From a virus (lineage: Duplodnaviria; Caudoviricetes), in the IMG/VR virus record IMGVR_UViG_3300022666_000227, positions 1-54,176 of that record: a stretch of DNA of 54,176 bases, one strand, 5' to 3'. Within the stretch, counting starts at the first letter, position 1. Each line of letters opens with the position of its first letter. The notes below the pieces were generated by a model. The model saw only the letters and a list, made by a program, of their open reading frames with translations, did no database searches and had not been told where the DNA came from. The position numbers were made by a program, and so were the translations under genes. Positions 43,806-44,980 of this stretch are shown one piece after another.

Positions 43806-44980
<1,175 letters not shown>

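Follow-up and report, generated by a model that had tools for sequence, protein, structure and literature searches.

A look-alike of the dnaE splice junction ahead of a Vsr-like endonuclease gene: a candidate expression-control element in a phage group I intron

[quoted passage not shown] For I-TevII (sunY) an invasion model has been put forward by Loizos, Tillier and Belfort (1994), as described in PMC3984707, and in that system intron sequence beside the HEG resembles the exon junction, as it does here. Dassa et al. (2009; PMC2677866) report a hairpin in the 5' UTR of 15 out of 16 HEGs that fracture genes, with Vsr-like HEGs among them, and hairpins over the ribosome-binding site (RBS) are usual for phage endonuclease genes, those of the Vsr-like type among them.

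The locus compared with these systems interrupts a phage dnaE gene. The window, by which we mean the whole stretch of DNA that was analysed, is a 54,176-base virus record with an estimated completeness of 26%. Pfam searches located dnaE (Pol III alpha) in pieces over 47560..42198 on the minus strand, which also holds every feature of the window given below. The second gene piece supplies exon 1 (44981..45718; Pfam DNA_pol3_alpha), which ends ...AAA TAC GAT (...GLLKYD), and exon 2 (42198..43805; DNA_pol3_finger and HHH_6) begins ATC TTA GGG CTT AAA (ILGLKTLD...). The splice junction was fixed between GAT and ATC because L004, a 206-kb virus contig with 61% protein identity, has a dnaE gene that is uninterrupted at this place and reads ...GLLKYDILGLKTLD through. 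Removal of the intron restores a continuous dnaE reading frame, and the spliced frame is open and colinear with that of intron-less L004. The gene is also split into two separate genes (47560..45718): the N part (46388..47560) ends ...GRSLQYDFGV-stop at about position 100 of Pfam DNA_pol3_alpha, the C part begins at 45718 with an 85-aa extension, and the ORFs of 151 and 62 aa between them have no Pfam or PHROG match. L004 has the same two-gene split, with about 1.6 kb of different ORFs in the gap.

The intervening sequence is a group I intron of 1175 nt (43806..44980) that starts with AAACAAAATTG and ends ...AAAATAG, its terminal G at 43806. The Rfam model Intron_gpI did not match it, neither at the gathering threshold nor with the limit relaxed to E<=10. 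Over 49-59 nt its core shares 88-92% identity with segments of Bacillus phage WH1 and Pectobacterium phage CB7, which are inter-exon stretches of split DNA-polymerase genes. In both the MFE and the centroid fold, P1 (44965..44984) pairs exon CGAT and intron AA with an internal guide, TTGTCG, which puts a U.G pair at the 5' splice site (CGAU and AA with UUGUCG). Folding and covariation indicate a P9 hairpin with a GAAA loop (44802..44819) and a P9.1 hairpin with the loop region CAGAAATGA (44780..44800), with compensatory change at 11 of the 14 pairs in seven sequences; P9.1 is common to the window, both introns of L077, L015, L013, L174 and L064.

RNA libraries bear on excision of the intron. 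Part of the stretch is present in seven metatranscriptome runs and most of it (80-91% of sampled words) in five; four were examined, as assembled contigs rather than raw reads. One assembled contig extends across the intron as far as 43805, where 20 letters equal to 44977..44958 follow, joining 43806/43805 to 44978/44977, that is, the terminal G to intron base 3 with a one-base ambiguity. A joint of this type would form when an excised group I intron circularises minus its first two bases, and it suggests that the distal 3' site is in use. Mean word depth on intron contigs was 21.8, 25.5, 34 and 5.1 in the four runs, versus 1.6-5.7 on exons, which is a hint and not a measurement, since contig depth cannot rank the parts of a gene. 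Three RNA contigs terminate within 16 nt of an intron border.

The 3' 900 nt of the intron are filled by the HEG (43806..44705; 299 aa), which comprises three helical repeats and a C-terminal Vsr-like domain. The repeats of the N-terminal part are PF18780 helical repeats of DNA-binding type (Pfam). In a structure model with a pLDDT of 84, the C-terminal domain superimposes on Vsr (1cw0_A; Z 11.4, rmsd 2.2, 106 aligned) and on the catalytic domain of I-Bth0305I (3r3p_B; Z 10.1, rmsd 2.8, 94 aligned), and its predicted fold is that of Vsr (compare I-Bth0305I; Taylor et al., 2011). Foldseek alone gave weak matches to the protein (E 0.13-0.19), and phmmer found no sequence-level match among PDB chains. 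Residues D223, E234, D236, H240 and D261 are invariant in seven homologues and are candidates for the conserved catalytic residues of the EDxHD family motif. As a single query against viral contigs the HEG gave no match; a scan of genome contigs returned 24 loci, each matching the C-terminal domain only, at no more than 46% identity. Free-standing homologues (38%) were seen directly upstream of the PHP-domain (dnaE N-terminal) gene in L014 and L078-L082, at about 3878..4903.

Ahead of this gene lies GATATCCTTGGACTGAAG (44758..44775; GAT ATC CTT GGA CTG AAG, which would read DILGLK), 4 nt past the P9.1 hairpin and 52 nt before the HEG. The original prediction had pointed to it as a copy of the exon junction after the P9 hairpins, and the comparison bears this out: 13 of 18 positions agree with the window's own spliced junction and all five differences are synonymous, one at codon position 1 and four at position 3. 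Relatives were found as endonuclease homologues, whose loci were then inspected in context, and in two of them a comparable segment occupies the corresponding place behind P9.1. In L077 (HEG 50% identical) it reads ELLGLK and matches its own exon at 15 of 18 positions; in L011 (58%) it reads DLLGLI and matches at 14 of 18. Both of these dnaE introns are inserted between GT and C, 16 nt upstream of the window site, the L011 site having been read by eye with its exon 1 off the contig. In L077 and L011 the exon keeps its copy of the segment intact next to the intron, so a cleavable target must comprise more than this segment.

The look-alike is not a constant feature of the endonuclease family. 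L012 (HEG 44%) lacks it, 2944 of 3000 shuffles being as good, and by eye so do L015 (31%), where just 28 nt separate P9.1 from the ATG, L013 (41%), and L014 and L078-82 (38%). A second dnaE intron of L077, with a paralogous endonuclease and an identical P9.1, shows 12 of 15 matches by eye, but 410 of 3000 shuffles do as well.

What the three look-alikes have in common in predicted RNA structure is their position as the 5' strand of a long hairpin. In the window this hairpin encloses an inner one, ATTTGATAC-AAATG-GTATCAAAT (44727..44749), and its 3' strand, TCCAAGGA(G) (44716..44724), holds the HEG Shine-Dalgarno sequence AAGGAG; TCCTTGGA of the look-alike stands opposite TCCAAGGA in an 8-bp pairing found in the MFE and centroid folds. 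The 3' strand includes the Shine-Dalgarno sequence in all three lineages and the start codon as well in L077 and L011. Duplexes between the translation-start region and the look-alike region reach -20.6 (window), -16.0 (L077) and -26.3 (L011) kcal/mol, and were as stable in 0, 9 and 0 of 500 shuffles, respectively; the partner sequences vary among the lineages. These results support the look-alike as a conserved anti-RBS strand ahead of the endonuclease gene. A separate candidate, pairing of the HEG start region with exon 2 or the 3' splice site so as to loop out the ORF, was rejected, as 27, 378 and 235 of 500 shuffles were as stable.

Conservation of the segment was also considered. The look-alikes of the window and L077 are identical at 14 of 18 positions, though the adjoining P9 and P9.1 have diverged with compensatory changes, and selection on the look-alike at present is argued because it is better conserved between lineages than these neighbouring stems. 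Codon 2 is the same in look-alike and exon within each lineage (ATC/ATC in the window, TTA/TTA in L077, TTG/TTG in L011). Assignment of each look-alike to its own exon scores 42, the best of six permutations (the others 31-39), so that tracking of the own exon in three lineages, one in six by permutation, is only suggestive.

From these observations we incline to the view that the look-alike is a working part of HEG expression control and not a relic splice site. Its RNA would pair with the HEG Shine-Dalgarno sequence, in relatives with the start codon too, so that in transcripts entering from dnaE the RBS would be buried and the HEG inefficiently translated. This RBS-sequestration step is supported by computation in three lineages. 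A second step would act on DNA: the dnaE junction is the presumed homing site of the endonuclease, and if this is assumed, a homing-site-like sequence stands immediately upstream of the HEG ORF in all three lineages (13/18, 15/18 and 14/18). By analogy with T4, the look-alike may therefore be a homing-site-like operator that the endonuclease binds uncut, shutting off its own gene. A scan for sigma-70-like promoters, from which the phage's own promoters may differ, found none over the segment or between it and the Shine-Dalgarno sequence. The missing promoter, together with the distant relatives and the L077 paralogue that have no look-alike, argues against a general operator in the family. The exon-like sequence could have been carried in with the HEG or could have evolved in place.

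A more doubtful account makes the segment a passive fossil of HEG capture, with the present RBS pairing secondary or incidental: exon-like DNA would have been imported on the left flank of the HEG from a former residence within or next to dnaE, or a target-like patch of the intron tail would have been cut and invaded by a free-standing endonuclease, as the model of Loizos and colleagues has it for I-TevII. The HEG is inserted exactly beside the look-alike, free-standing homologues adjoin the dnaE PHP gene in L014 and L078-L082, and differences that are all synonymous are what a copy from another dnaE allele is expected to show; the look-alike is indeed closer to the junction of intron-less L004 (15/18) than to its own (13/18). 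Against a passive relic stand the RBS pairing, significant in three lineages, and conservation between lineages far better than that of the neighbouring stems. In relatives without a tail HEG the place of the look-alike is taken by an unrelated P9.2 hairpin. In T4 sunY the fused upstream and downstream flanks are target-like and were shown to be cleaved (as described in PMC3984707), whereas here the resemblance, read from sequence alone, is confined to the upstream (left) flank; the right flank, GTAACAAAAT, matches the exon after GTTATTAA at about 3 of 10 positions by eye. We consider a fossil improbable as an account of the present element, though a passive origin of the sequence itself is a serious alternative.

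It is also unlikely that the look-alike is merely an anti-RBS strand that resembles the exon by chance, a CCUUGG-type anti-Shine-Dalgarno sequence happening to look like Leu-Gly codons. The longest peptide common to the junction and a six-frame translation of the intron's non-coding 5' part (275 nt) has six residues, and sharing of this length arose in 1 of 5000 dinucleotide shuffles for the junction +-6 aa and in 4 of 5000 for +-10 and +-15 aa, by a statistic picked after the match had been seen. At the DNA level, local alignment of the window look-alike is not significant (its score was matched or beaten by 467 of 3000 and by 212 of 2000 shuffles), nor is that of L011 (435 of 3000), whereas the L077 match was equalled by just 5 of 3000 shuffles. 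For the window, the randomisation proposed with the original prediction gave a divided answer, the match being rare in peptide shuffles and unremarkable in DNA alignment. The best local DNA match in the window intron is in fact the neighbouring GTTATTAA, once thought to be a further match to the exon; a reading of the look-alike plus GTTATTAA as a copy of exon 2 with a 10-nt deletion was dropped, as GTTATTAA is native intron sequence in the ORF-less intron of L174. What weighs more heavily against chance is the presence of a similar segment in two relatives, at this very position. Codon 2, which varies by lineage, also equals that of its own exon in all three; the lineages are related by descent and hence are not independent. 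Most probably the look-alike resembles the dnaE junction for a reason other than chance.

The tail of the intron bears on where splicing ended before the HEG arrived. The native tail motif GTTATTAAC (44750..44758), found also in both L077 introns and in L011 and not enriched in the window, forms the left border of the HEG insertion; the right border is the conserved 3'-terminal motif AGTAACAAAATAG (43806..43818), seen in relatives. In L174, a 212-nt ORF-less intron in a portal gene whose frame was verified, GTTATTAAC is contiguous with GTAACAGAAG, and the tail reads GTTATTAA followed directly by GTAACAGAAG and exon 2. The 3'-terminal motif precedes the 3' splice site in both L077 introns, L013, L012, L015, L174 and L064, and in L011 it falls within the 3' end of the HEG, just upstream of the inferred 3' splice site. 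Introns with P9.1 and no tail HEG, namely L174 and two in L064, end in GTAACA(G/A)AA(T)G; in the two L064 introns, whose 3' ends were recognised from the motif alone, the endonuclease genes lie further upstream. All three run from P9.1 through a small P9.2 hairpin to GTTATTAA (GTCATAAA in L064), GTAACAGAA(T)G and exon 2, and it is in place of their P9.2 that the look-alike stands. In the window, GTTATTAA and GTAACAAAATAG bracket the HEG, and the same two motifs flank it in both L077 introns and in L011.

Because motifs that are contiguous in L174 flank the window HEG, we conclude from sequence comparison that the gene was inserted into the intron's own tail and that the distal 3' splice site is the ancestral one. 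Near the 3' splice site, AGTAACAAA is read as GTA ACA AAA in the window HEG (43818..43806) and as AGT AAC AAA in L011 (about 985-1013) and L077 (about 4880-4895), and conservation in different reading frames of the HEG points to constraint as nucleic acid and not as protein. In the window the HEG stop codon, TAG, shares its last base with the terminal G of the intron; in L077 and L011 the stop codon lies within exon 2. ORF-less introns with the core type of the window, WH1 intron 2 and L009, end 45-50 nt after P7', with splice sites read by eye. Neither of these two introns carries the segment. A search of viral contigs for the pattern CAGAAATGA-N(20-45)-GTTATTAA gave at least 118 matches, six of which passed a stem filter; among the matches listed, only L174 was judged by eye to be an intron. 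Core-pattern scans of viral contigs gave 0 matches and then one (L009), alignment of dnaE exon 2 to metagenome contigs gave none, and a tblastn search of phages with the L004 dnaE segment returned 1285 records, all below 60% identity and at one place each, and was of no use for recognising interrupted alleles.

These findings contradict the proposal that the look-alike is the old 3' splice site and start of exon 2, displaced by the arriving endonuclease gene, which we regard as very improbable. The look-alike does come after the final hairpins of the core, a place at which an intron without an ORF might end, and a G stands 5 nt past P9.1 in the window, both L077 introns and L012. Yet the 3'-terminal motif of the family is distal in all HEG-bearing members and ends the introns without a tail HEG (L174, L064), the RNA contig shows the distal G as the reactive end of the intron, exon 1 joined to the proximal G would shift frame, and the look-alike includes the GAT codon, which here belongs to exon 1.

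Weaker still is the suggestion that the look-alike acts as a decoy or alternative 3' splice site and sends part of the splicing into a truncated DnaE. Its first base, the proximal G at 44775, does precede exon-2-like sequence, and joining after it gives, as had been predicted, an early stop (...KYDISLD-stop, a product ending after 4 codons). Yet the look-alike is predicted to be base-paired, the guide region shows by eye no P10-type complementarity in the window to exon 2 or to the look-alike, and the four RNA-library runs show no proximal-site joint, nor an exon-exon joint, an absence that proves little in assembled contigs. The original prediction had named a decoy or a regulatory site together; the regulatory half is the one best supported, by the RBS hairpin.

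Returning to a working control element, its parts may also move between introns. The window intron looks chimeric, with a border between 44980..44823 and 44822..43806: its P3-P8 core resembles the ORF-less introns of Bacillus phage WH1 (in dnaE, at another site) and L009, and its P9, P9.1, HEG and tail resemble those of L077, whose core is of another type. The WH1/L009-type core is inserted between D and I in the window and the different core of L077 between GT and C, 16 nt upstream. Such a chimera suggests cassette exchange between introns, in which look-alike, P9-P9.1, HEG and tail motifs would move as one cassette between unrelated cores and neighbouring dnaE sites. It is conceivable, though we hold it only tentatively, that a single 18-nt element has two jobs, as putative DNA operator and as RNA anti-RBS strand, co-evolving with the exon and travelling in the cassette.

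The sites of insertion are themselves clustered. Related HEG introns occupy at least four insertion points in a hot spot of about 24 nt of dnaE, at the motif G-(L/V)-L-K-x-D-x-L-G-L; relative to the first base of its Asp codon, these points range from 11 nt upstream to 13 nt downstream (L012, L013, L077, L011, L015 and the window). L012 and L015 are inserted at other positions, and L013 at the GT/C site of L077 with its HEG inverted relative to dnaE. The dnaE gene of L077 (1939..8876) also holds an intein-like insert (…VHN before C) and at least two introns with Vsr-like HEGs. Beyond about 6630 the gene is interrupted once more, and a 327-aa ORF comes next. In Bacillus phage WH1 (L007), a three-piece 'DNA polymerase III alpha' is broken by two ORF-less intron-like segments (690..1385 and 2391..2720), neither annotated as an intron in the record.

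Among described HEGs of the Vsr type, I-Bth0305I and the HEGs of Dassa et al. (2009) likewise combine N-terminal DNA-binding modules with a C-terminal Vsr-fold nuclease. The fractured-gene HEGs of that study also reside in phage replication genes, DnaE included, and have a 5' UTR hairpin, and in Vsr-like (EDxHD) HEGs the 3' end of the gene likewise overlaps the downstream coding part. The window HEG differs in having three PF18780 repeats and not the NUMODs of the EDxHD family, and in lying in the 3' tail of its intron, whereas I-Bth0305I lies in P1 of a recA intron. In the main-text passages of the literature searched, a homing-site-like segment ahead of a Vsr-like HEG is nowhere described. 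If the tentative reading of a dual-use element in a travelling cassette is true, the Vsr-like endonucleases would gain their first autoregulatory operator, and the locus would give a concrete example of cassettes that swap introns. The locus is in addition a clean example of a HEG entry point, inside a small terminal hairpin of the intron 3' tail.

The closest parallel is with phage T4, from which this kind of arrangement is already known. In td/I-TevI, and as proposed in nrdB/I-TevIII and nrdD(sunY)/I-TevII, a homing-site-like sequence is likewise found inside the intron just upstream of the ORF, and in td/I-TevI a stable RNA hairpin hides the RBS, as is predicted here. The T4 endonucleases are GIY-YIG or HNH enzymes, whereas that of the window is Vsr-like, and no promoter was found here for the candidate operator. 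Unlike in T4, the same nucleotides would here be both the look-alike and the anti-RBS strand. We propose no new kind of mechanism; the value of the locus lies in a testable dual use of one sequence, as DNA and as RNA, and in modular intron exchange. It would carry over to a different endonuclease family, and to an uncultured jumbo-type phage, a type of control that until now has been worked out in T4 alone: a homing-site-like sequence combined with an RBS hairpin.
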